64,000 nucleotides of DNA from Eledone cirrhosa (Eukaryota), in assembly GCA_964016885.1 (NCBI GenBank), contig OZ024751.1:10850001-10914000 (forward strand), read 5' to 3'. Below, in pieces: positions 2,633 through 64,000 of this stretch. Made by a program: the position numbers and the translations under genes. The notes under the pieces are model-generated. The model worked only from the letters and a program-made list of their open reading frames with translations, had not been told where the DNA came from and searched no databases. How positions within the stretch are numbered: the stretch's first letter is position 1; every line of letters starts with the position of its first letter.

Positions 2633-3690
2633 ATATATCATAAAACATGTCTATAGAATCACAAGATAAAATATATACTATTTCCTCTCCCAATTAGCAT
2701 TTATTTTACACCTAATTCTGTTTAGTTGACTATATCTGGGCAATTACGCTGTCGAAATATTCGATAAATATTCCGCTACGGCCGACGCGAAGCGCTAGTT
2801 TCGGTTATTTGTCGGAGATTTCTTCATAGAGGCCTCATTCTTATAGCCTGGTCTATTCGATTTTTTATATGGTTAATTATGCTAATTGGGAGATGAAATA
2901 GTATATATTTTATCTTGTGATTCTATAGACATGTTTTATGATATATAGCACTGATCGTTTAATTTATTAATTTTTCATTGAGCCACAAAGTGACCAGTTG
3001 CAAAACACGTATATGTATATGTATGTATATATATATGTAAACTTTTATATGTAATAATCTCCCATTGGGTTGAGATACAAATTTGGCTGTATTGTGCTGT
3101 GTTTTCTAGCAAAAATGCCACCAGTCGTAAGCAACTACCACACCCCTTCCAACCTGACCGAGACTACGTCACGATTTTTAGCCATTTTGAAATGAATTTC
3201 TTGGCGCGATCAATTTGGAAAATTTAGTGTCTAGATACGAGCGAGCTTCCTGATGAATCCCGCGTTCGAGTTTATATAATTATTACATAATTATTGGAAA
3301 ACTCAAAATACGGACGAAACCATGGTAGAGGTATTTAAATGTAGTTTATTTTACACCTAATTCTGTTTAGTTGACTATATCTGGGCGATTACGCTGTCGA
3401 AATATTCGATAAATATTCCGCTACAGCCGACGCGAAGCGTTAGTTTAGGTTATTTGTCAGAGATTTCTTCATAGAAGCCTCATTCTTATAGCCTGGTCTA
3501 TTCGATTTTTTATATGGTTAATTATGCTAATTGGGAGAGGAAATAGTATATATTTTATCTTGTGATTCTATTAACATGTTTTATGATATATAGCTCTGAT
3601 CGTTTAATTTATAAATTTTTCATTGAGCCACAAAGTGACCAGTTGCAAAACACGTATATGTATATGTATGTATATGTATATGTAAACTTT
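2633..3690 (+). mobile_element. Non-autonomous PLE pLTR/retrozyme-like element (~646 bp unit, ~1.5 copies, inverted 5' piece)
   Basis: 2701-3045 is repeated at 3347-3690. 2633-2700 is the reverse complement of ~2878-2947. It contains a hammerhead and is flanked by (TA)n. Confidence 0.75.
3245..3332 (+). ncRNA. Type I hammerhead ribozyme with extended stem II
   Basis: gcttc-CTGATGA-atcccg..gagttt..aaactc..cggac-GAAA-ccatgg-TA-gaggt, with palindromic stem III (ACCATGGT). Confidence 0.75.
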
Positions 3691-3712
3691 TATATATATA
3701 TATATATGTATT

Positions 3713-8560: not shown

Positions 8561-9910
<1,350 letters not shown>

Positions 9911-10897
9911 TATGTAGATAAATCTACCAAGAGTTTACGGTAGTGTCCAATCCGTATGAAGAACTCAATGTATTCCGGATATCATGGAAAGAAGAGATGT
10001 AATGAAAAATCACTTTCGGTGAAAGATAAACGGTATACAGAGTCAAGATAAAATATTAAACAAATAATGAATAAACAATTCCTTATATTAAACAAAAAAA
10101 GTTCATTATTTAACGATCGTTTCTAGGATATATATGTGTTAGAATTGGTATGCATATTCAACAGATCTATGTACAAAATTATACAAAATTATACAAATTA
10201 TCAAGATTAAATATACATACCAACACATATATACGCCGTCTTCAGAAATAATGAAGTATATTTATTGATAATAACAACAATTCAAAATTTCAGGTCCGTT
10301 TGGGAACAAAATTGACCAATGAAAACACAAAGGGTTAAATGCAGTTCGGTGTGTGTATATACATGCAAAACCCCCACACATATTTTACAAAAATGTATGT
10401 ATAATTTGTATACGCATACTAAAAGGATGGATGCAAATACAAAATTTCAAGGTTAATGTCTCTGTAAGTTTATAATGCACAGATAAGATGCGTATTGACA
10501 CAAGTATGAAGTTAAGTATATAAATATATTTTTTCATACTCACACATATCCGTACAATCACACATACACGCGCGTATATGCATAAATATACACATAACCA
10601 CGAACATACAAACACACACACACCCCCACTCACATTTATATATGTGGATATAAAATCATAAGCACATGGATATTAATTCACTCACATAAAACACTGGCAC
10701 ACACATTTTTAGATCAAGATACAGAAATTAGGTGGGAGGGGGGGGGAGAGGTCAGTATTCAACGGTCTGAGCAGACTGCCTAATATAGATGTATCTATAA
10801 ACTAAGAAAATAAAATAAAAAATAATAAATAAACATTAAAGAGGAAAGAATAGAAAGAAAAAAGAAAAAAGAAAAAAGAAAAAAGAAATATATCAAG

Positions 10898-10941
<44 letters not shown>

Positions 10942-11156
10942 CATACACATACATATATATATATATATATACACACACATATATATATAATATACATATA
11001 TATACACATAGACACACACACACACATACATAAATATACACACATATACAAACACATACATACATATACACACATCCACACTAAGAACATACATACACAC
11101 ACATATATAAACATATACATATACACACATACATACATATACACATATACATACAA

Positions 11157-11207
<51 letters not shown>

Positions 11208-11523
11208 CATATATATGTATATACACGTACATATACACACACATATACATATAATCACACATACTATATAGACACAGATATATATAACCACACACATACA
11301 TGCACATATACAACACTTACATACTAATATACATACAGATATACACATACATAGCTATATATACACACAAATATATACAGACTTACATATATACATACAG
11401 ACAAATACTTACGCATCTATATATCGGTATATACATACAAACACCACTACACTATCACACAACTTAGAAATACAAAGAGAAAGGTATATACCTATACACA
11501 CATACATATACAAATAGAAAAAC

Positions 11524-11554
<31 letters not shown>

Positions 11555-11620
11555 TATATATATACATATATATATATATAACATATATATATATATATAT
11601 ATATACACATACATATACAC
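9911..11620 (-). repeat. 3' pLTR of the PLE
   Basis: Matches 16945-18640 apart from microsatellite length changes and a few substitutions or indels. Confidence 0.9.
10102..10255 (-). ncRNA. Type I hammerhead ribozyme in the 3' pLTR
   Basis: Minus strand: ttcattattt-CTGAAGA-cggcgtatatatgtgtt..aacacatatatatccta-GAAA-cgatcg-TT-aaataatgaa. Stem I is 10 bp, stem III is palindromic, and the stem II insert is ~115 nt. Confidence 0.75.
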
Positions 11621-14350: not shown

Positions 14351-16792
14351 TTAATTAGGTTTATAATATTTAAATGTTTTTTTTAGTTTATGATTACACG
14401 ATATAATTAATTCCTGTCGTTTATTTAATAAGATATCCTTAGACTTCATTATTTCAAATAGTTCTTGGGAACATAATCTACATTCATTTCTATTATTTTG
14501 ATAAGGGGTGGCTCTTTTGAGCACACTCCAGGTCAAATCATATTCTATATTCTTATTTTTATAACTATTGATTTTTTCTGCTAGAGATGTTGTATTAGCC
14601 AGTGCGGCATTTTTAAAACTATGCTTGTGGGTATTAAACCTTGTCTTAAAATTGTTAGAGGTAGCTCCTATATATGAGCAAATAGAATCTTTAGTTTTAA
14701 CATTACATTTATAGACTATGTTGTTAACAAGACAATTCCCTTTTAATGGGCAGTTTGCTTTGTTTCTACAGTTACATCCTTTCGTTAATTCTGTATTTGA
14801 GGAGATATTATGGTTAATTTGATGTACTGGTGGTATACTTATGGTTTTCTTACATTTATATGCATTATACGCACTTATATTTTGTTTTATGTTATTTGTT
14901 GTAGAGTATGAGAATTTAACTGTAGACCTATTTAAGATTTGATGGTATTTGTGGTTTGGCGGGAAGTTTTTCTCAAGGATATAAAAAAATTTTTTAGCAA
15001 TATTATCCTTAACTTGTAAATTAAAAGGAGCATTATACCAAGTAACCCGTCTATTACGGTTTCTATGTTGTTTATTATTTTTATTATTTTTATAGGTTGT
15101 ATCGTGATTTTTACTAGGAGGATTAATGTTAATGATCTCACCACAACTATTTTTAGTTATATTTGTAGATTTAGGTGTTTTATCCTTTTTATTAGGAGTT
15201 TTATTATTAATATTTATTAGAGTTGTATGATGAGTAGTTTTTTGAGAGTTACTATACTTTATATTAGAAGATTTGGTATTTTGGGGTATAGTGTGGGTGG
15301 CATTTAGGTGTGTACTATTCATTTGGTGTTTGTTGGTAATATTATGTTGTATGCTTTCAGTATTTTTAGTAGAAGGTATATACTCTAATCTATTTTTGTG
15401 GCCACTTCTATCTAGAGCTTCGTTATAGAAGGTCGCATTTTTATCAAATACATCTTGGTTAGAAGAAAGGTTAGAAATTCTAAGTGATATATTATATGCA
15501 AGGTTTTTAAGGATAGATTTAGGGTGATTAGATTGTGAGTGTATGTAATGTAAGTTTTGGTTAGGTTTATGGTAAGGTTGGTAGATACCCGTAGCTAAAT
15601 CTAAAGTTATATCTAGGAAATTTACTACTTTACTTGTTTTTTCAAAAGTAATATTAAGATTATAATAGTCTTTAAGGAAAGTTCTAATATGTTTTTTGTT
15701 TTTTTCAATTTCTGAAAGGCTAAGGTTGTTAGAAAGAAGAAGACAGTCATCACGATATAAACCACCTTTGAGGTGGGGAAAAGACGCATTTATGTTGAAA
15801 AGGAGAAAGAGGCCCACAAGATCAGTAATTTGGGCGGAATCGCTTGAACCCATAGTAATATCAAAAAGATTACTGTATGTGTTTCTGGTCCAGTATTCAT
15901 TCTGAAATTTAATAAGTGTTAGTCTAGCATGTGTAATAATGTTAATGTCATCCAAAGTTAAGTTAGATCTATTTTTAGCAAATATCAATGCTTTGTTCAG
16001 GAGTATAGGTGATATAGAAGAATAGTAATTATCTATATCAAATTGTAGGAATGAAGCAGAAGATTTACACCTAATATTTTTAAACCAGTTAATTACCTGG
16101 GAGGTGTTTTCCCAGAGTGGTAAAATAACGTGTTTTCTTATTTGTGGGATGACTCTATCTAAAATTTTTTTGCTAATTATTCCAATATCTGATTTGGAGG
16201 GACATATAAGTCTAATAGAAGGATTTGAGTTAAAGTTAGATTTGTGATCTTTCAGGTTGAAGTGTGGTCTTTTCAATGCCAAAGGTTCAGTTCTATCTTC
16301 AATGTTTAGTTTTTTTACTATGTTGTGTGTTTTGTTGTTGATGTTGGTGAGTGACACATTATTAGATTTTTTGTAATTTTTTCTGAGTTCTTTATATATG
16401 AACTCGTTATAATGTTCAATATCCATATGATACAAGTTACCAGTTTTGTCCGAGTGGACATGGATTTTTTTAGACTTTTTTAGGTCCAATAGGGTAGAAT
16501 CAAGGTCCTTTTGAAAGACGGATTTATACTTTTTAAATTTGAGGTGTTTAATTAAATTAAAAAGGTCTTTCTCGAAGTCTTCAAGTAAAAAGTTGTGTGG
16601 TGGATTCTTGTAAGTATTGAAATCATACATATATTTCCGATCTGCTTGTTTAGATTTTCTATCGAAGTGGTAGGCTCTCCATCTAACCCTTCTGATAAAA
16701 TTATTAGTTTTCTGAATCATAAGGAGTAAGAAGTCATCCTTAGAAGGTATTGGTATGTTTTTTAAGGAGGTTCCTAAATATTGTTTTTCCAT
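14351..16792 (-). CDS. PLE polyprotein: reverse transcriptase plus GIY-YIG endonuclease (813 aa from the first ATG; open to 16813)
   Basis: N-terminal SLKNIPIP..FIRRVRWRA; RT motifs QFDIDNYYSSI, TMGSSDSAQ, YRDD, NFLDITL, YHKP..SNHP; Cys linker CNCRNKANCPLKGNC; endonuclease IVY..YIGAT..FKTRFNTH..C.LC..E..LLNKR. No internal stops. Confidence 0.95.
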   Translation of the reverse strand: MEKQYLGTSLKNIPIPSKDDFLLLMIQKTNNFIRRVRWRAYHFDRKSKQADRKYMYDFNTYKNPPHNFLLEDFEKDLFNLIKHLKFKKYKSVFQKDLDSTLLDLKKSKKIHVHSDKTGNLYHMDIEHYNEFIYKELRKNYKKSNNVSLTNINNKTHNIVKKLNIEDRTEPLALKRPHFNLKDHKSNFNSNPSIRLICPSKSDIGIISKKILDRVIPQIRKHVILPLWENTSQVINWFKNIRCKSSASFLQFDIDNYYSSISPILLNKALIFAKNRSNLTLDDINIITHARLTLIKFQNEYWTRNTYSNLFDITMGSSDSAQITDLVGLFLLFNINASFPHLKGGLYRDDCLLLSNNLSLSEIEKNKKHIRTFLKDYYNLNITFEKTSKVVNFLDITLDLATGIYQPYHKPNQNLHYIHSQSNHPKSILKNLAYNISLRISNLSSNQDVFDKNATFYNEALDRSGHKNRLEYIPSTKNTESIQHNITNKHQMNSTHLNATHTIPQNTKSSNIKYSNSQKTTHHTTLININNKTPNKKDKTPKSTNITKNSCGEIININPPSKNHDTTYKNNKNNKQHRNRNRRVTWYNAPFNLQVKDNIAKKFFYILEKNFPPNHKYHQILNRSTVKFSYSTTNNIKQNISAYNAYKCKKTISIPPVHQINHNISSNTELTKGCNCRNKANCPLKGNCLVNNIVYKCNVKTKDSICSYIGATSNNFKTRFNTHKHSFKNAALANTTSLAEKINSYKNKNIEYDLTWSVLKRATPYQNNRNECRLCSQELFEIMKSKDILLNKRQELIISCNHKLKKTFKYYKPN

Positions 16793-16944
16793 TGTGATAT
16801 GGATGATGGACAATTGAAAGAGCTCAACTAAATGTATATGGGTTTACAAAATCATACATATATATATGTATATACATAAATATAAAATTAATACACACAT
16901 ACAGTACAAAAATATGAATATTTCCGTGAAAATAGGAGCAAAAT

Positions 16945-17942
16945 TATGTAGATAAATCTACCAAGAGTTTACGGTAGTGTCCAATCCGTATGAAGAACTC
17001 AATGTATTCCGGATATCATGGAAAGAAGAGATGTAATGAAAAATCACTTTCGGTGAAAGATAAACGGTATACAGAGTCAAGATAAAATATTAAACAAATA
17101 ATGAATAAACAATTCCTTATATTAAACAAAAAAAGTTCATTATTTAACGATCGTTTCTAGGATATATATGTGTTAGAATTGGTATGCATATTCAACAGAT
17201 CTATGTACAAAATTATACAAAATTATACAAATTATCAAGATTAAATATACATACCAACACATATATACGCCGTCTTCAGAAATAATGAAGTATATTTATT
17301 GATAATAACAACAATTCAAAATTTCAGGTCCGTTTGGGAACAAAATTGACCAATGAAAACACAAAGGGTTAAATGCAGTTCGGTGTGTGTATATACATGC
17401 AAAACCCCCACACATATTTTACAAAAATGTATGTATAATTTGTATACGCATACTAAAAGGATGGATGCAAATACAAAATTTCAAGGTTAATGTCTCTGTA
17501 AGTTTATAATGCACAGATAAGATGCGTATTGACACAAGTATGAAGTTAAGTATATAAATATATTTTTTCATACTCACACATATCCGTACAATCACACATA
17601 CACGCGCGTATATGCATAAATATACACATAACCACGAACATACAAACACACACACACCCCCACTCACATTTATATATGTGGATATAAAATCATAAGCACA
17701 TGGATATTAATTCACTCACATAAAACACTGGCACACACATTTTTAGATCAAGATACAGAAATTAGGTGGGAGGGGGGGGGGGGAGAGGTCAGTGTTCAAC
17801 GGTCTGAGCAGACTGCCTAATATAGATGTATCTATAAACTAAGAAAATAAAAATAAAAAATAATAAATAAACATTAAAGAGGAAAGAATAGAAAGAAAAA
17901 AGAAAAAAGAAAAAAGAAAAAAGAAAAAAGAAATATATCAAG

Positions 17943-17978
<36 letters not shown>

Positions 17979-18195
17979 CATACACATACATATATATATA
18001 TATATATACACACACATATATATATAATATACATATATATACACATAGACACACACACACACATACATAAATATACACACATATACAAACACATACATAC
18101 ATATACACACATCCACACTAAGAACATACATACACACACATATATAAACATATACATATACACACATACATACATATACACATATACATACAAAT

Positions 18196-18244
<49 letters not shown>

Positions 18245-18640
18245 CATATATATGTATATACACGTACATATACACACACATATACATATAATCACACATA
18301 CTATATAGACACAGATATATATAACCACACACATACATGCACATTTACAACACTTACATACTAATATACATACAGATATACACATACATAGCTATATATA
18401 CACACAAATATATACATACAGACAAATACTTACGCATCTATATATCGGTATATACATACAAACACCACTACACTATCACACAACTTAGAAATACAAAGAG
18501 AAAGGTATATACCTATACACACATACATATACAAATAGAAAAACATATAGATATATATATATATATATATACACACACATATATATATACATATATATAT
18601 ATATAACATATATATATATATATATATACACATACATATA
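16945..18640 (-). repeat. 5' pLTR of the PLE
   Basis: Direct repeat of 9911-11620. Confidence 0.9.
17136..17289 (-). ncRNA. Type I hammerhead ribozyme in the 5' pLTR
   Basis: Same sequence as 10102-10255, about 340 nt upstream of the ATG. Confidence 0.75.
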
Positions 18641-18690
18641 TCAGGTCCGTTTGGGAACAAAATTGACCAATGAAAACACAAAGGGTTAAA
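18641..18690. repeat. 50 bp extra copy of an internal pLTR segment
   Basis: TCAGGTCCGTTTGGGAAC..AAGGGTTAAA equals 10290-10339 and 17324-17373. Confidence 0.9.
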
Positions 18691-19067
18691 AACCAGTATG
18701 ACTCTAAAAACCGGTTTGTCTGTGTGTTTACATACAGAATAGCTGGCCACTCACAGTAAAGTGACCAGTGAAAAAACTTGGTACATCTACATATTTATAC
18801 GTGTGTGTATTCATATACATACTAGTATTTCAGTATATATATATGGATGTACATCTTTAACTTAATTGTTTAAGCGTCAGTCATACAAAAGTGAGTTACA
18901 AACGAAATGAAATTTAATTTCGTTTCGTTATTTGTTTTTATCGTCTCCGTTGAACCGGTACTTACTCACACTCTATGCAAATTGGTCTGCCCACTACTAA
19001 TTTTCATAGAAAAAGCATATAACGATATGTGCTTTTACGATTCTCTAGAGAGGCCGGAAGATAGGTA

Positions 19068-19112
19068 AATATTGCTGATGAGTTGTAACAACAACGAAAC
19101 TAGTCCAATATT
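19068..19112 (+). ncRNA. Minimal type I hammerhead ribozyme, copy 1
   Basis: aatattg-CTGATGA-gttg(taacaa)caac-GAAA-ctag-TC-caatatt; canonical core, GUC cleavage site after 19105. Confidence 0.93.
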
Positions 19113-19532
19113 CCTTGTCTGGCTTTCTGGAGAATAGAGGAAAGGTGTTTCCTCAAAAACCAGTATGACTCTAAAAACCGGTTTGTCTGTGTGTTTACAT
19201 ACAGAATAGCTGGCCACTCACAGTAAAGTGACCAGCGAAAAAACTTGGTACGTCTACATATGTATACGTGTGTGTATTCATATACATACTAGTATTTCAG
19301 TATATATATATGGATGTACATCTTTAACTTAATTGTTTAAGCGTCAGTCATACAAAAGTGAGTTACAAACGAAACGAAATTTAATTTCGTTTCGTTATTT
19401 GTTTTTATCGTCTCCGTTGAACCGGTACTTACTCACTCTATGCAAATTGGTCTGCCCACTACTAATTTTCATAGAAAAAGCATATAACGATATGTGCTTT
19501 TACGATTCTCTAGAGAGGCCGGAAGATAGGTA

Positions 19533-19577
19533 AATATTGCTGATGAGTTGTAACAACAACGAAACTAGTCCAATATT
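19533..19577 (+). ncRNA. Minimal type I hammerhead ribozyme, copy 2
   Basis: Identical to copy 1. Confidence 0.93.
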
Positions 19578-19999
19578 CCTTGTCTGGCTTTCTGTAGAAT
19601 AGAGGAAAGGTGTTTCCTCAAAAACCAGTATGACTCTAAAAACCGGTTTGTCTGTGTGTTTACATACAGAATAGCTGGCCACTCACAGTAAAGTGACCAA
19701 GGAAAAAACTTGGTACATCTACATATGTATACGTGTGTGTATTCATATACATACTAGTATTTCAGTATATATATATGGATGTACATCTTTAACTTAATTG
19801 TTTAAGCGTCAGTCATACAAAAGTGAGTTACAAACGAAACGAAATTTAATTTCGTTTCGTTATTTGTTTTTATCGTCTCCGTTGAATCGGTACTTACTCA
19901 CACTCTATGCAAATTGGTCTGCCCACTACTAATTTTCATAGAAAAAGCATATAACGATATGTGCTTTTACGATTCTCTAGAGAGGCCGGAAGATAGGTA

Positions 20000-20044
20000 A
20001 ATATTGCTGATGAGTTGTAACAACAACGAAACTAGTCCAATATT
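20000..20044 (+). ncRNA. Minimal type I hammerhead ribozyme, copy 3
   Basis: Identical to copy 1. Confidence 0.93.
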
Positions 20045-20340
20045 CCTTGTCTGGCTTTCTGGAGAATAGAGGAAAGGTTTTTCCTCAAAAACCAGTATGA
20101 CTCTAAAAACCGGTTTGTCTGTGTGTTTACATACAGAATAGCTGGCCACTCACAGTAAAGTGACCAGTGAAAAAACTTGGTACATCTACATATGTATACG
20201 TGTGTGTATTCATATACATACTAGTATTTCAGTATATATATATGGATGTACATCTTTAACTTAATTGTTTAAGCGTCAGTCATACAAAAGTGAGTTACAA
20301 ACGAAACGAAATTTAATTTCGTTTCGTTATTTGTTTTTAT

Positions 20341-22846
<2,506 letters not shown>

Positions 22847-54500: not shown

Positions 54501-55600
54501 ACAACAGTAACACCAACTCCAGGAACAACAATAACAACAACAGTAACACCAACTCCAGGAACAACAATAACAACAACAGTAACACCAACTCCAGGAACAA
54601 CAATAACAACAACAGTAACACCAACTCCAGGAACAACAATAACAACAACAGTAACACCAACTCCAGGAACAACAACAACAACAGTAACACCAACTCCAGG
54701 AACAACAACAACAACAGTAACACCAACTCCAGGAACAACAATAACAACAACAGTAACACCAACTCCAGGAACAACAATAACAACAACAGTAACACCAACT
54801 CCAGGAACAACTATAACAACAACAGTAACACCAACTCCAGGAACAACTATAACAACAACAGTAACACCAACTCCAGGAACAACAACAACAACAGTAACAC
54901 CAACTCCAGGAACAACAATAACAACAACAGTAACACCAACTCCAGGAACAACAATAACAACAACAGTAACACCAACTCCAGGAACAACAATAACAACAAC
55001 AGTAACACCAACTCCAGGAACAACAACAGTAACACCAACTCCAGGAACAACAACAACAACAGTAACACCAACTCCAGGAACAACAACAACAACAGTAACA
55101 CCAACTCCAGGAACAACAATAACAACAGTAACACCAACTCCAGGAACCACAATAACAACAACAGTAACACCAACTCCAGGAACCACAATAACAACAACAG
55201 TAACACCAACTCCAGGAACCACAATAACAACAACAGTAACACCAACTCCAGAAACCACAATAACAACACTAACACCAACTCCAGGAACCACAATAACAAC
55301 AACAATAACAACAGCAACAACAGTAACCAACTCTAGGAACAACAATAACAACAGCAACAACAGTAACCAACTCTAGGAACAACAATAACAACAGCAACAA
55401 CAGTAACCAACTCTAGGAACAACAATAACAACAGCAACAACAGTAACCAACTCTAGGAACAACAATAACAACAGTAATACCAACTCCAGGAACAACAATA
55501 ACAATAACAACAGCAACAGTAACACCAACTCCAGGAACAACAATAACAATAACAACAACTATAACAGCAACACCTGCAACGATAACATTAGCAAGAACAT
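42565..55600. repeat. 13 kb minisatellite, core GTAACACCAACTCCAGGA plus (ACA)n, units mostly 27-36 bp
   Basis: Several hundred homogeneous units whose length varies in steps of 3 bp; four 40 bp variant units lie at 55321-55480. Confidence 0.97.
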
Positions 55601-55619
55601 GATGAACAACTGCGAAATC

Positions 55620-56465
55620 TTGAAAACAAAGAGAATAACAAGAACGATTAAAACGAAACAAGTTTTTAACAAAGAATGACAAGAAAAAACAACAAAGAAA
55701 AAATAAACCTTTAAAAAATAAAACGTAACAAATTCCCCCAAACTGGGGATATCTCCGAGGGTTAGTCATTGAGAAAGCCCACAAAAAGCCACAGTAACCT
55801 TGACTGCTAGGGCACGTGTCCTCTCTCAGTGGCCCTCCTCTAATTTACTGGCACATGCTCAGTTCAAGTTCATTCACTCGGATCATACTCGTCTTTCTCA
55901 CCCACATTTCATCAAACAGGCAACAAGGCAACATTTATCTTTCCACCCTGATTTTTCTCTTCAGGGGAAACCTGAAAAAGTTAGGGTTAGGGTTAGGGCT
56001 TCGCCGAAGAGGAGAGTGCTTGTCTTCAACTCCTTCAAGCGCGTTCACCGCATGACCACTTTCGCCGTGACCACCGGGCGGATGAAACCTGCCTGTCCTT
56101 TCCCTCTAAAGGAAAAGGTAGGAGTGATCTTTACAATAGATACATCAGGTGTTCGACGTAAACCCACAAGTCAGCAATGCTCGGAAACTTGATCTGTGCG
56201 TGCAGGACGGTTTCGTCACTCACAGGCCCGACTGACGGCACACCCATGCCTGACAGTTTAACCTAACTGGCAAAACCCTCGATAGCATTGACAAGCTAGG
56301 AATTTTTGGAAGTTATCCATAAACTCTGGACTGAAAGTCCTCTGAAAAAGAGTGGCTAGTTGATTTTCGTCGACCTCTTGAGTCTCCTCAAGAACGTCGT
56401 CGTTTTTACCCGCCACTAAATATCTATAGAAAGCTAAGGTGGAGTTTCCACCGATCGTATTCAAC
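55620..56465 (-). pseudogene. Decayed 5'-truncated non-LTR retrotransposon (Tx1/L1-like ORF2 C-terminus plus 3' UTR)
   Basis: Minus-strand frames joined across frameshifts give TLAFYRYL..MDNFQKFLACQCYRG / LPVR..RHGCAVSRAC / DETVLHAQIKFPSIADLWVYVEHL / AKVVMR*TRLK..FFRFPLKRKIRVER, resembling the zf-RVT region of L1/Tx1 ORF2. Confidence 0.7.
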
Positions 56466-56951
56466 AAACACAACGAAAGCAACAGTAGCAATAACATTAA
56501 CAGTAGTAACAATAAAAACAACAGCAAAGACAACAGTAACAACAGTACCCCTGACCATTAACAGCTACAATTACCGTTCCTGACTCTTCCATGAAAACAC
56601 TGAGCCACCTCCACAACAAAAAATAAACTACACCTCCCAACACACCACCACCACCACCACCACCGCTATTAACAACAACTAGAATACAATACAGTTACAA
56701 AGCCCACACCTCGCTACACCACACCCCACATCAATACGCCTGCAACAACAACAACAATGACAACAACAGTACAATACAGTGAGTACCTCCTCACCACCAC
56801 ACGACACACCACATCAATACGCCACCACCGCTACCTGCAACAACTGTTCAATATAATAGTATAATACTGTTACAACTCCTTCCACCCCGACTAAACCCCA
56901 CACCACACCAATACGCCACCAACAATACTAGTAACAGCAACAAGTCATTAT

Positions 56952-57130
56952 ATTGGCAGTATCGGTAGAGGGTCGGACGCCATGTTTTGAAGCATAGTTA
57001 CCTCCCTTTATGGTCTGAGTTCAAATCCCGCCGAGGTTAACTTTGCCTTTCATCCTTACGGGGTCGATAAAATAAAGTACCTGTAATGCACTGGGTATTG
57101 CTGGTCTTGTGCCAAAAAGTAGAAACATTA
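56952..57130 (+). mobile_element. tRNA-derived SINE (family A)
   Basis: TTGGCAGTATCGGTAGAGGGTCGG..GAGTTCAAATCCCGCCGAGG. Confidence 0.85.
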
Positions 57131-57254
57131 TAATTACCACAGTAACATCAACTGCTCAATACAGCTACAACACCCTCCTTCCCCCACAACACCCACTCCA
57201 CACCAATATGCCACTAACGATACTAGCAACAACAACAACACTACACTACAGTTA

Positions 57255-59195
57255 CAATAACACCACCAACAACAATAACACCACCAACAACAATAACACC
57301 ATCAACAACAATAACACCACCAACAACAATAACACCACCAACAATAACACCACCAACAACTACAACACCAACAATAACACCAACAACTATAACACCACCA
57401 ACAACACCAATAACACCAACAACTATAACACCACCAACAACACCAACAACAACAACACCACCAACAACAATAACACCACCAACAACTACAACACCAACAA
57501 TAACACCAACAACTATAACACCACCAACAACACCAACAACAACAACACCACTAACAACAATAACAACACCAACAACTACAACACCAACAATAACACCAAC
57601 AACTATAACACCACCAACAACACCAACAACAACAACACCACCAACAACAATAACACCACCAACAACAATAACACCACCAACAACAATAACACCACCAACA
57701 ACAATAACACCACCAACAACAATAACACCACCAACAATAATAACACCACCAACAATAACACCACCAACAACTACAACACCACCAACAACTACAACACCAA
57801 CAATAACACCACCACCAACAATAACACCACCACCAACAATAACACCACCACCAACAATAACACCACCACCAACAATAACACCACCACCAACAATAACACC
57901 ACCACCAACAATAACACCAACAACAACAATAACACCAACAACAACAATAACACCACCATCAACTATAACACCACCAACAACAATAACACCAACAACAATA
58001 ACACCAACAACTACAACAACAACAACACCACCAACAACAACAACACCACCAACAACAATAACACCAACAACAATAACACCACCAACAACAATAACACCAC
58101 CAACAACAACACCACCATCAACAACACCAACAACTACAACACCAACAACAACACCACCAACAACTACAACACCAACAACAACACCACCAACAACAACACC
58201 ACCAACAACAATAACAACTACAACATCAACAATAACACCACCATCAACAATAACACCACCATCAACAATAACAACACCAACAACTACAACACCAACAATA
58301 ACACCACCATCAACAATAACAACTACAACACCAACAATAACACCACCAACAACAATAACAACTACAACATCAACAATAACACCACCAACAACTACATCAA
58401 CAATAACAACTACATCAACAATAACACCACCAACAACAATAACACCACCATCAACAATAACACCACCAACAACAATAACAACTACAACATCAACAATAAC
58501 ACCACCATCAACAATAACATCACCAACAACAATAACACCACCAACAACAATAACATCACCAACAACAACACCACCAACAACAATAACAAATACATCAACA
58601 ATAACACCACCATCAACAACTACAACACCAACAACAACAACACCACCAACAACTACATCAACAATAACACCAACAACATCAACAATAACAACACCATCAA
58701 CAATAACACCACCATCAACAATAACAACATCAACAATAACACCACCATCAACAATAACATCACCAACAACACCACCATCACCAACAACAACACCACCATC
58801 AACAATAACAACTACAACATCAACAATAACAACACCATCAACAATAACACCACCATCAACAATAACAACAACAACAACAACACCACCAACAACAATAACA
58901 ACTACAACATCAACAATAACACCACCATCAACAATAACACCACCATCAACAATAACACCACCAACAACAACACCACCATCAACAATAACAACTACATCAA
59001 CAATAACACCACCATCAACAATAACACCACCAACAACAATAACACCACCAACAACAATAACAACTACAACATCAACAATAACACCACCATCAACAATAAC
59101 AACTACAACATCAACAATAACACCACCATCAACAATAACACCACCATCAACAATAACACCACCAACAACAACACCACCAACAACAATAACAACAA
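57255..59195. repeat. (AAC/AAT/ACC/ATC) trinucleotide-derived satellite
   Basis: Direct reading. Confidence 0.95.
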
Positions 59196-62100
59196 CAACA
59201 GTAACACCAACTCCAGGAACAACAATAACAACAACAGTAACACCAACTCCAGGAACAACAATAACAACAACAGTAACACCAACTCCAGGAACCACAATAA
59301 CAACAACAGTAACACCAACTCCAGGAACCACAATAACAACAACAGTAACACCAACTCCAGGAACAACAATAACAACAACAGTAACACCAACTCCAGGAAC
59401 AACAATAACAACAACAGTAACACCAACTCCAGGAACAACTATAACAACAACAGTAACACCAACTCCAGGAACAACTATAACAACAACAGTAACACCAACT
59501 CCAGGAACAACAATAACAACAACAGTAACACCAACTCCAGGAACCACAATAACAACAACAGTAACACCAACTCCAGGAACAACAATAACAACAACAGTAA
59601 CACCAACTCCAGGAACAACAATAACAACAACAGTAACACCAACTCCAGGAACCACAATAACAACAGTAACACCAACTCCAGGAACAACAATAACAACAAC
59701 AGTAACACCAACTCCAGGAACCACAATAACAACAACAGTAACACCAACTCCAGGAACAACAACAACAACAACAGTAACACCAACTCCAGGAACAACAATA
59801 ACAACAACAGTAACACCAACTCCAGGAACAACAACAACAACAGTAACACCAACTCCAGGAACAACTATAACAACAACAGTAACACCAACTCCAGGAACAA
59901 CTATAACAACAACAGTAACACCAACTCCAGGAACAACTATAACAACAACAGTAACACCAACTCCAGGAACAACAATAACAACAACAGTAACACCAACTCC
60001 AGGAACAACAACAACAACAGTAACACCAACTCCAGGAACAACTATAACAACAACAGTAACACCAACTCCAGGAACAACTATAACAACAACAGTAACACCA
60101 ACTCCAGGAACAACTATAACAACAACAGTCACACCAACTCCAGGAACAACAATAACAACAACAGTAACACCAACTCCAGGAACCACAATAACAACAACAG
60201 TAACACCAACTCCAGGAACAACAATAACAACAACAGTAACACCAACTCCAGGAACAACAATAACAACAACAGTAACACCAACTCCAGGAACCACAATAAC
60301 AACAGTAACACCAACTCCAGGAACAACAATAACAACAACAGTAACACCAACTCCAGGAACCACAATAACAACAACAGTAACACCAACTCCAGGAACAACA
60401 ACAACAACAACAGTAACACCAACTCCAGGAACAACAATAACAACAACAGTAACACCAACTCCAGGAACAACTATAACAACAACAGTAACACCAACTCCAG
60501 GAACAACTATAACAACAACAGTAACACCAACTCCAGGAACAACAATAACAACAACAGTAACACCAACTCCAGGAACCACAATAACAACAGTAACACCAAC
60601 TCCAGGAACAACAATAACAACAACAGTAACACCAACTCCAGGAACCACAATAACAACAACAGTAACACCAACTCCAGGAACAACAACAACAACAACAGTA
60701 ACACCAACTCCAGGAACAACAATAACAACAACAGTAACACCAACTCCAGGAACAACAACAACAACAGTAACACCAACTCCAGGAACAACAACAACAACAG
60801 TAACACCAACTCCAGGAACAACAATAACAACAACAGTAACACCAACTCCAGGAACAACTATAACAACAACAGTAACACCAACTCCAGGAACAACTATAAC
60901 AACAACAGTAACACCAACTCCAGGAACAACAACAGTAACACCAACTCCAGGAACAACTATAACAACAACAGTAACACCAACTCCAGGAACAACTATAACA
61001 ACAACAGTAACACCAACTCCAGGAACAACTATAACAACAACAGTAACACCAACTCCAGGAACAACAATAACAACAACAGTAACACCAACTCCAGGAACAA
61101 CAATAACAACAACAGTAACACCAACTCCAGGAACAACAATAACAACAACAGTAACACCAACTCCAGGAACAACAATAACAACAACAGTAACACCAACTCC
61201 AGGAACAACAACAACAACAGTAACACCAACTCCAGGAACAACAACAACAACAGTAACACCAACTCCAGGAACAACAATAACAACAACAGTAACACCAACT
61301 CCAGGAACAACAATAACAACAACAGTAACACCAACTCCAGGAACAACTATAACAACAACAGTAACACCAACTCCAGGAACAACTATAACAACAACAGTAA
61401 CACCAACTCCAGGAACAACAACAGTAACACCAACTCCAGGAACAACTATAACAACAACAGTAACACCAACTCCAGGAACAACTATAACAACAACAGTAAC
61501 ACCAACTCCAGGAACAACTATAACAACAACAGTAACACCAACTCCAGGAACAACAATAACAACAACAGTAACACCAACTCCAGGAACAACAATAACAACA
61601 ACAGTAACACCAACTCCAGGAACAACAATAACAACAACAGTAACACCAACTCCAGGAACAACAATAACAACAACAGTAACACCAACTCCAGGAACAACAA
61701 CAACAACAGTAACACCAACTCCAGGAACAACAACAACAACAGTAACACCAACTCCAGGAACAACAATAACAACAACAGTAACACCAACTCCAGGAACAAC
61801 TATAACAACAACAGTAACACCAACTCCAGGAACAACTATAACAACAACAGTAACACCAACTCCAGGAACAACAACAACAACAGTAACACCAACTCCAGGA
61901 ACAACAATAACAACAACAGTAACACCAACTCCAGGAACAACAATAACAACAACAGTAACACCAACTCCAGGAACAACAACAGTAACACCAACTCCAGGAA
62001 CAACAACAACAACAGTAACACCAACTCCAGGAACAACAACAACAACAGTAACACCAACTCCAGGAACAACAATAACAACAGTAACACCAACTCCAGGAAC

Positions 62101-62520
62101 CACAATAACAACAACAGTAACACCAACTCCAGGAACCACAATAACAACAACAGTAACACCAACTCCAGGAACCACAATAACAACAACAGTAACACCAACT
62201 CCAGAAACCACAATAACAACACTAACACCAACTCCAGGAACCACAATAACAACAACAATAACAACAGCAACAACAGTAACCAACTCTAGGAACAACAATA
62301 ACAACAGCAACAACAGTAACCAACTCTAGGAACAACAATAACAACAGCAACAACAGTAACCAACTCTAGGAACAACAATAACAACAGCAACAACAGTAAC
62401 CAACTCTAGGAACAACAATAACAATAACAACAGCAACAGTAACACCAACTCCAGGAACAACAATAACAATAACAACAACTATAACAGCAACACCTGCAAC
62501 GATAACATTAGCAAGAACAT
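59196..62520. repeat. Second array of the GTAACACCAACTCCAGGA minisatellite
   Basis: Same unit and same terminal variants as 42565-55600. Confidence 0.97.
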
Positions 62521-62539
62521 GATGAACAACTGCGAAATC

Positions 62540-63385
62540 TTGAAAACAAAGAGAATAACAAGAACGATTAAAACGAAACAAGTTTTTAACAAAGAATGAC
62601 AAGAAAAAACAACAAAGAAAAAATAAACCTTTAAAAAATAAAACGTAACAAATTCCCCCAAACTGGGGATATCTCCGAGGGTTAGTCATTGAGAAAGCCC
62701 ACAAAAAGCCACAGTAACCTTGACTGCTAGGGCACGTGTCCTCTCTCAGTGGCCCTCCTCTAATTTACTGGCACATGCTCAGTTCAAGTTCATTCACTCG
62801 GATCATACTCGTCTTTCTCACCCACATTTCATCAAACAGGCAACAAGGCAACATTTATCTTTCCACCCTGATTTTTCTCTTCAGGGGAAACCTGAAAAAG
62901 TTAGGGTTAGGGTTAGGGCTTCGCCGAAGAGGAGAGTGCTTGTCTTCAACTCCTTCAAGCGCGTTCACCGCATGACCACTTTCGCCGTGACCACCGGGCG
63001 GATGAAACCTGCCTGTCCTTTCCCTCTAAAGGAAAAGGTAGGAGTGATCTTTACAATAGATACATCAGGTGTTCGACGTAAACCCACAAGTCAGCAATGC
63101 TCGGAAACTTGATCTGTGCGTGCAGGACGGTTTCGTCACTCACAGGCCCGACTGACGGCACACCCATGCCTGACAGTTTAACCTAACTGGCAAAACCCTC
63201 GATAGCATTGACAAGCTAGGAATTTTTGGAAGTTATCCATAAACTCTGGACTGAAAGTCCTCTGAAAAAGAGTGGCTAGTTGATTTTCGTCGACCTCTTG
63301 AGTCTCCTCAAGAACGTCGTCGTTTTTACCCGCCACTAAATATCTATAGAAAGCTAAGGTGGAGTTTCCACCGATCGTATTCAAC
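62540..63385 (-). pseudogene. Duplicate of the decayed Tx1/L1-like fragment
   Basis: Apparently identical to 55620-56465, offset 6920 bp. Confidence 0.7.
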
Positions 63386-63871
63386 AAACACAACGAAAGC
63401 AACAGTAGCAATAACATTAACAGTAGTAACAATAAAAACAACAGCAAAGACAACAGTAACAACAGTACCCCTGACCATTAACAGCTACAATTACCGTTCC
63501 TGACTCTTCCATGAAAACACTGAGCCACCTCCACAACAAAAAATAAACTACACCTCCCAACACACCACCACCACCACCACCACCGCTATTAACAACAACT
63601 AGAATACAATACAGTTACAAAGCCCACACCTCGCTACACCACACCCCACATCAATACGCCTGCAACAACAACAACAATGACAACAACAGTACAATACAGT
63701 GAGTACCTCCTCACCACCACACGACACACCACATCAATACGCCACCACCGCTACCTGCAACAACTGTTCAATATAATAGTATAATACTGTTACAACTCCT
63801 TCCACCCCGACTAAACCCCACACCACACCAATACGCCACCAACAATACTAGTAACAGCAACAAGTCATTAT

Positions 63872-64000
63872 ATTGGCAGTATCGGTAGAGGGTCGGACGC
63901 CATGTTTTGAAGCATAGTTACCTCCCTTTATGGTCTGAGTTCAAATCCCGCCGAGGTTAACTTTGCCTTTCATCCTTACGGGGTCGATAAAATAAAGTAC
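63872..64000 (+). mobile_element. tRNA-derived SINE (family A), cut by the window end
   Basis: Duplicate of 56952-57080. Confidence 0.85.

Follow-up and report, generated by a model that had tools for sequence, protein, structure and literature searches.

The window analyzed here is a 64,000-nt stretch of Eledone cirrhosa DNA (assembly GCA_964016885.1, contig OZ024751.1, positions 10,850,001 to 10,914,000). It contains a tandem repeat with hammerhead ribozymes that adjoins an intact Penelope-like element (PLE), and the question raised by this locus is what the repeat is and which enzyme placed it there. The best explanation is probably an animal non-LTR retrozyme family that was copied by a PLE enzyme.

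The array and its hammerheads

A first-pass annotation of the sequence had described about 3.5 nearly identical, non-coding tandem units of 465-467 nt, and this description holds. Approximately 3.54 head-to-tail units occupy 18688..20340 on the + strand, with starts at 18688, 19155, 19620 and 20087 and periods of 467, 465 and 467 nt. Tandem Repeats Finder returned the same array (18688-20340, 3.5 copies, 98% matches).

18688..19154, + strand: retrozyme unit 1, 467 nt
19155..19619, + strand: retrozyme unit 2, 465 nt, with a 2-nt deletion
19620..20086, + strand: retrozyme unit 3, 467 nt
20087..20340, + strand: partial unit 4, 254 nt, the RNA-sense 3' end of the insertion

The longest open frames over the units reach only 57-66 codons, and we therefore regard the units as non-coding. 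GC content is 0.31 across 18001-20000, and the monomer is strongly self-paired, folding with a z of -9.6 relative to shuffles. Nine substitutions and one 2-nt deletion distinguish the units, each of them private to a single unit. Where non-LTR retrozymes have a target-site duplication, it exceeds 4 bp; here the 3' end of the array falls directly after a 13-bp hairpin and is followed by (TA)n, in which such a duplication is illegible, while the other end is joined to the PLE. These ends correspond to unit positions 1 and 254 and do not match the ribozyme cut site at position 418. The intact PLE, the (TA)n target and this mismatch between ends and cut site had all been passed over in the first-pass annotation.

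Each of the three full units carries an intact type I hammerhead on the + strand:

19040..19135, + strand: hammerhead 1, whose stem I is extended, with its core at 19068-19112, the palindrome at 19099-19104 and a predicted cut after 19105
19505..19600, + strand: hammerhead 2, cut after 19570
19972..20067, + strand: hammerhead 3, cut after 20037

All three combine CTGATGA (at 19075, 19540 and 20007) with GAAA, the ACTAGT palindrome and the GTC triplet, in agreement with the perfect core, the three GUC cut sites and the ACUAGU stem III proposed earlier. Stem II can form the four pairs previously assigned to it, with a 6-nt loop, or five pairs with a 4-nt loop. The proximal part of stem I has seven pairs, and the extension described beyond it is present with one mismatch in unit 2. 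None of 5000 dinucleotide shuffles of one unit contained the motif. An Infernal-type search against Rfam, suggested as a check, matched all three ribozymes to Hammerhead_HH9 (RF02275) at E 3e-8, though the score of 40 bits is below the 52-bit gathering threshold, and at gathering level Rfam has no match across the whole window. Alignment to the model spans all 77 of its positions and takes in the core, both stem I and stem II, and the bulge of stem I; the array's helix III differs from the model by lacking five positions. The remaining Rfam matches by E-value (sraA and miRNA families) were rejected as hairpin or TA artefacts.

One claim, that these hammerheads are minimal, does not survive comparison with the published definitions. 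PMC4209133 reserves that term for motifs of PLEs in which helix II is long and helix I short (7-8 bp and 4-5 bp, with an unpaired base 5' of stem II) and calls canonical those with a helix I of ~6 bp, a helix II of 4 bp and a palindromic helix III of 1-2 bp. The array ribozyme shares the palindromic stem III region and, as predicted, the dimer mechanism with the minimal PLE hammerheads, but its helix II has 4-5 bp, its helix I has 7 bp plus the extension, and the extra base is missing. By the definitions in PMC4209133 it is a canonical hammerhead with a weak helix III, of the newt and axolotl kind. As in newt satellite 2 and axolotl HHR_Amex1, helix III consists of one pair and a palindromic tetraloop.

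Because the CUG of the core pairs with the UAG of the palindrome, the active fold of a lone ribozyme is disfavored, with a computed energy 7.4 kcal/mol above the minimum. When one transcript carries two ribozymes, the fold computed for the double hammerhead lies only 0.4 kcal/mol above the minimum. This difference, together with the analogy to axolotl HHR_Amex1, of which 6% cleaved in 1 h as a monomer and much more as a dimer (PMC7229834), makes the predicted dimer dependence of the array hammerhead well supported in silico, as first suggested. PMC7229834 describes dimer dependence as an amphibian feature and most invertebrate retrozymes as active monomers, whereas here a ribozyme of the dimer-dependent type sits beside a PLE resembling a clade from aquatic invertebrates.

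A probable new family in a known class

The array resembles animal non-LTR retrozymes (PMC7229834; bioRxiv 10.64898/2026.07.22.740005) in its head-to-tail non-coding units with one type I hammerhead each, its low GC content, its strongly self-paired monomer and its co-occurrence with PLEs. Three consecutive hammerhead-bearing units of this composition, and further copies that conserve the core, make it very probable on sequence grounds that the repeat belongs to this class, as proposed before. It differs from the retrozymes described there in that its sequence is new and the unit is physically fused to an intact PLE. Although it was thought to be on the long side, a unit of 465-467 nt exceeds the 170-400 nt of PMC7229834 but falls within the 51-972 bp of the bioRxiv report. 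Compared with the retrozymes in the main texts of these reports, the array is probably a new family in a known class. In Xenopus, 24 of 57 families resemble known elements, nearly all of them PLE termini, while the array shares no long sequence with its PLE; of the nine retrozyme dimers predicted in Xenopus, one cleaved when assayed in vitro (bioRxiv 10.64898/2026.07.22.740005).

Further copies were sought in public sequence runs. Among 24 listed runs, 20, from 16 studies, hold the query stretch or part of it, and we compared four of the 24 (X1, X4, X5 and X21) with 18641-19154 at 85% likeness. None of the listed runs that hold the stretch is an RNA run, which says nothing about expression. 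X21 consists of raw reads, of which about 1/100 of the run was sampled and none were placed. X1 yielded 1161 matching contigs, 500 of them at 99% or more (depth in this run is not copy number), X4 yielded 4 and X5 yielded 11. The head-to-tail joint is present in all three runs that hold the unit, which come from three public studies. A single 497-nt contig in X4 goes once round the unit plus 30 nt, a sequence that fits tandem DNA or a circle alike.

Across the runs compared, neither the core nor the palindrome shows a variant at a 5% threshold except at the cut nucleotide, so the family does have further copies that keep the core. The cut nucleotide is C in X4 and U in the X5 contig and in 82% of the X1 depth. 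GUU is a poorer hammerhead substrate than GUC. Sixteen of 18 substitution rows were mapped onto the circular fold, omitting two in which unit 1 alone differs both from the other units and from the runs; five fall at unpaired positions and 11 at paired ones, where nine keep the pair and two break it. A double change from U-A to A-U in stem II accounts for 37% and 36% of the X1 depth at its two positions and for all of X4's. Stem II therefore covaries, with pairing kept by compensatory change. In X1, U at the cut nucleotide prevails while stem II covaries; weak cutters may be favored, or a GUU subfamily may have expanded. Given the prevalence of GUU in X1 and the single cleaving dimer among the nine from Xenopus, activity should not be assumed for the whole family.

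Two letters common to the units in the window are also rare in X1, namely T at position 151, with 0.07% of the depth, and G at position 297, with 6%. With all differences among the units private to one of them, these letters point to copying from one template lineage, unless they are species differences.

The adjoining Penelope-like element and the junction

Immediately to the left of the array lies an intact PLE on the - strand, with a stop-free frame of 830 codons (14351-16843):

14351..16792, - strand: intact open reading frame, 813 aa from the first Met, whose reverse transcriptase (RT) is telomerase-like and which has a GIY-YIG-type region at its C terminus
16945..18640, - strand: upstream pseudo-LTR, a 5'-truncated tandem copy, 97.7% identical to 9911-11617
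9911..11617, - strand: downstream pseudo-LTR, the 3' end of the PLE, running into (TA)n
17136..17289, - strand: the PLE's own hammerhead-like motif, with a second copy at 10102-10255, 7034 nt to the left
18641..18690, - strand: 50-nt junction piece, an exact copy of PLE 17324-17373
9347..9910: (TA)n-rich tract bordering the PLE's 3' end
20341..22834: (TA)n-rich tract bordering the array's 3' end

The reading frame has 118 homologues among 7999 scored candidates. Pfam assigned no family to the protein and a sequence search of the PDB gave nothing significant; in three of seven homologues, weak GIY-YIG matches appeared below the Pfam cut-off. A model built from a 78-sequence alignment reached a pLDDT of 85.7, and its nine highest-ranked Foldseek matches are all telomerase RTs (best E 4.3e-9), a predicted resemblance with a TM-score of only about 0.3. 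The protein contains RWR, DKT, CNCRNKANC (CxCX5C), CRLC (CxxC) and CNH (CxH), and in loose pattern form these five motifs recur in 58, 78, 45, 76 and 75 of the 78 aligned proteins, respectively. VY..YIG is found at residues 693-709. Hydra-clade PLEs lack a CCHH motif; in the window protein, two cysteines lie between VY and YIG, eight residues apart, and two cysteines occur there in 2 of the 78 proteins.

RW(K/R), DKT, the CxCX5C linker, the C-terminal GIY-YIG region, CxxC and CxH are features of the Hydra-clade PLEs (PMC8557442), as are the (TA)n target, the partial tandem arrangement with pseudo-LTRs and a hammerhead in the repeat. On these motifs we consider the element Hydra-clade-like. The Naiad clade was rejected because the endonuclease region is C-terminal. 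Its 1.7-kb direct repeats make the PLE a partial tandem with a unit of 7034 bp, whereas Hydra-clade units measure less than 3 kb; the window PLE also differs in its microsatellite-filled 3' region and irregular hammerhead, and in that the place of the inverted copy is taken by a foreign retrozyme array. The PLE protein is intact and apparently young.

The hammerhead-like motif of the PLE is in sense orientation, occurs once per repeat and folds with a z of -5.9. It has a 10-bp stem I, a stem II of about 110 nt with an irregular base, a palindromic stem III and GUU, and in contrast to the array ribozyme it does show the traits of minimal PLE hammerheads. It was missed by Rfam at gathering level and by our pattern scans. 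Among 78 related PLE loci, hammerheads with a palindromic stem III were detected in sense in eight and in antisense in none, with none in shuffles; these counts are underestimates, since the scan misses the irregular motif of the window PLE. The related Hydra-like contigs carry sense hammerheads with a palindromic stem III of 6-10 nt (L042 at 75 and 2522, L020 at 2399, L026 at 3057, L029 at 319 and L049 at 2440), and those of L042 flank the reading frame on both sides.

Two simple relationships between array and PLE could be discarded. The array is neither a derivative of the PLE's repeat nor the PLE's own inverted repeat, as their best local alignment scores 30 where shuffles reach 39. The exclusively sense orientation of hammerheads in related loci and the lack of long similarity together argue that the antisense array is not the PLE's own repeat. 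Against the 78 PLE loci, the best match of the retrozyme unit had an E of only 0.06.

The PLE and the array meet head-to-head, 5' to 5', with no (TA)n between them. The upstream PLE repeat stops at 18640, and the last three nucleotides of the junction piece (AAA) are also the first three of the array. From there the 3' ends of both elements face outward into 0.56 and 2.5 kb of (TA)n. An inverted-repeat scan across the junction gave 540 pairs, and all 25 of those listed have microsatellite arms only. PLE insertions often bear an inverted, 5'-truncated copy at their 5' end, and (TA)n is the target of Hydra elements, a group reported from aquatic invertebrates (PMC8557442). The array sits where such a copy would be expected, and one insertion event may therefore have copied both RNAs.

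X1 also contains the neighboring PLE family, with loose ends at 18658 and 18690. No contig crossed the PLE-array junction among the 12 loose ends examined of 60. One X1 contig ends at 18941, the position equivalent to the array's 3' end, followed by a single differing letter, which is too little to count.

Routes of insertion and neighboring elements

In the mechanism that we propose, tandem copies would be transcribed from the + strand. In two neighboring hammerheads, the ACUAGU palindromes would pair with each other and strands of stem I would be exchanged, yielding the double hammerhead suggested by computed folds and by analogy, and cleavage after GUC would release 465-467-nt monomers that a host ligase could circularize. 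The GIY-YIG and RT regions of a PLE enzyme would have cut (TA)n and, judging by the array's ends, primed cDNA synthesis inside the RNA at unit position 254 rather than at the ribozyme cut, copying 3.54 units from one template lineage. This cDNA would have met the 5' end of the Hydra-clade-like PLE, whose own synthesis would have been primed on the opposite side of the break in (TA)n, and joined it through the 50-nt PLE-templated piece and 3 nt of microhomology.

Parts of this scheme have precedents. The PLE protein of Anolis cuts both strands of AT-rich DNA and extends them, and its start point lies within the RNA; it is predicted to be a dimer and achieves insertion in vitro without the need for ribozyme cleavage, and for Anolis PAc no reads start or end at the cut site (PMC11167929). 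We think it probable that the insertion was PLE-driven, by target-primed reverse transcription into (TA)n. That the array and the adjoining PLE were copied in the same event has a nearly even chance. In its favor are the geometry, the piece copied from the PLE and a border devoid of (TA)n; the greater divergence of the array units and the fact that there is only one such junction count against it. More tentatively, we propose trans-mobilization, in which one dimeric Hydra-clade PLE complex would have opened (TA)n, copied its own RNA and the retrozyme RNA, the latter 3.54 times round, from opposite ends of the break, and joined both cDNAs head-to-head.

The strongest competitor, with a substantial chance of being correct, is that two separate insertions struck one (TA)n hot spot, the array first and the PLE later on its left, and that the intervening (TA)n was lost; the retrozyme may then depend on another PLE family. 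Among the array units there are 9 substitutions in 1653 nt, compared with 3 in ~3400 for the two PLE repeats (Fisher p = 0.003), making the units about six times more diverged, as expected if the array came first. This divergence suggests that the array is older or that its template was a linear multimer with units that differed beforehand; in a shared event, it weakens the picture of copying from one circle. Two more hammerhead-type elements lie in (TA)n within the surrounding 20 kb, so clustering is common here, and the lack of long similarity between unit and PLE also fits independent arrivals. Separate insertions nevertheless require that all the (TA)n was deleted even though the PLE cDNA ended within a TA-rich stretch of its own. 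At the two other element-element borders of the cluster, 4.9 kb and 0.56 kb of (TA)n remain, where the PLE-array border has none. The orientation, moreover, matches the inverted copy of PMC8557442.

It is improbable that the array represents a DNA satellite with a ribozyme, or a terminal repeat detached from another PLE family, and is copied from uncleaved linear RNA with little or no circle. GUU at the cut site in most of the X1 depth would suit such an origin, as would the in vitro insertion of Anolis PAc without ribozyme cleavage (PMC11167929) and the eight of nine Xenopus dimers that did not cleave (bioRxiv 10.64898/2026.07.22.740005), and a multimer template would account for the divergence of the units as well. 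However, the cut nucleotide is the sole exception to a core and palindrome without variants at the 5% threshold, stem II covaries, the whole monomer folds far better than shuffles, and repeats of the same build in coral, mussel and axolotl are abundant circles (PMC7229834).

Growth in place is similarly doubtful. An insertion of 1.5 units could have expanded to 3.5 by unequal crossing-over, a route proposed in bioRxiv 10.64898/2026.07.22.740005 that the shared derived letters also fit and that would make the copy number uninformative about rolling-circle copying. Stepwise duplication tends toward nested shared changes, yet no difference is common to two units, and the founding insert would still exceed one unit. 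Least probable is that the PLE and the array were brought together by chimeric assembly or by repeats that rearranged at a later time. Despite the repeat-rich region and the absence of a spanning contig among the 12 loose ends examined, the join lies in non-repetitive sequence with an exact 50-nt templated piece, a 3-nt overlap and no long shared repeat.

We return to copying by a PLE enzyme as the preferred reading. On its own, the repeat is an ordinary new family. A PLE origin or PLE help for retrozymes has been proposed before (PMC7229834; bioRxiv 10.64898/2026.07.22.740005); the former calls PLEs "a strong candidate" for retrozyme mobilization, and the latter states that the retrozyme mechanism remains to be elucidated. 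Animal retrozymes are widespread, and their helper enzyme has so far been inferred from co-occurrence and repeat similarity. Our literature search, which covered few subscription papers, found no earlier description of an intact PLE with a retrozyme array fused to it. The locus offers a concrete candidate helper in its intact PLE protein, together with the RNA of a retrozyme, a priming site predicted at position 254 and a (TA)n target, and because this candidate is fused to the array, the question of mobilization becomes testable. Trans-mobilization, if true, would provide direct genomic evidence for an enzyme moving an animal retrozyme, one that is no derivative of its helper's terminal repeat. 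A 20-nt motif in the unit would then be a possible recognition or promoter signal:

18758..18777 in unit 1, + strand: 20-nt motif, unit positions 71-90, present in each unit

These positions give the best 20-nt ungapped match of the unit both to the PLE repeat and to a second repeat family at 2700-3702 (17/20 each), at borderline significance, as 2 and 1 of 40 shuffles did as well among 12 comparisons. In the PLE, the motif lies inside the junction piece and antisense to the reading frame. In the retrozyme and in the second repeat family, the motif precedes the cut by 347 and 340 nt, and further sites are at 2987, 3632, 10309, 17343 and 18660. A pattern derived from the motif occurs at 12 places against 3.05 expected, nine of them in the retrozyme, the second repeat family and the PLE, a post hoc count of copies that are not independent. 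The motif is not enriched in the 78 PLE loci (4 and 1 of 78, compared with 11 of 78 shuffled). A putative role as a promoter, recognition or protein-binding site is possible by analogy; the promoter role is suggested by newt satellite 2, which has an internal snRNA-type promoter (cited in PMC2220036).

Frames judged by eye revealed no other recognizable gene in the window, and the hammerhead pattern was found in none of the viral contigs. The second hammerhead repeat, at 2700-3702 on the + strand, has a period of 645 nt in about 1.5 copies that are 96% alike. Its hammerhead combines a core at 3250, a long stem II, a palindromic stem III and a GUA cut at 3327; the repeat's 3' end runs into (TA)n and the hammerhead fold is not the minimum-energy one. 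At 8563-9345 on the + strand, a 780-bp element between two (TA)n tracts has a hammerhead-like motif with the U3-A8 core variant (PMC4209133), core at 9164 and cut at 9247, which folds no better than shuffles. Farther to the right, at 42000-62300 and 55400-64000, tandem sequence that is rich in A/C and skewed between the strands extends over a very long region, where stop-free frames exceed 4000 codons. A duplication with a period of 6920 nt places identical frames at 55416 and 62369.
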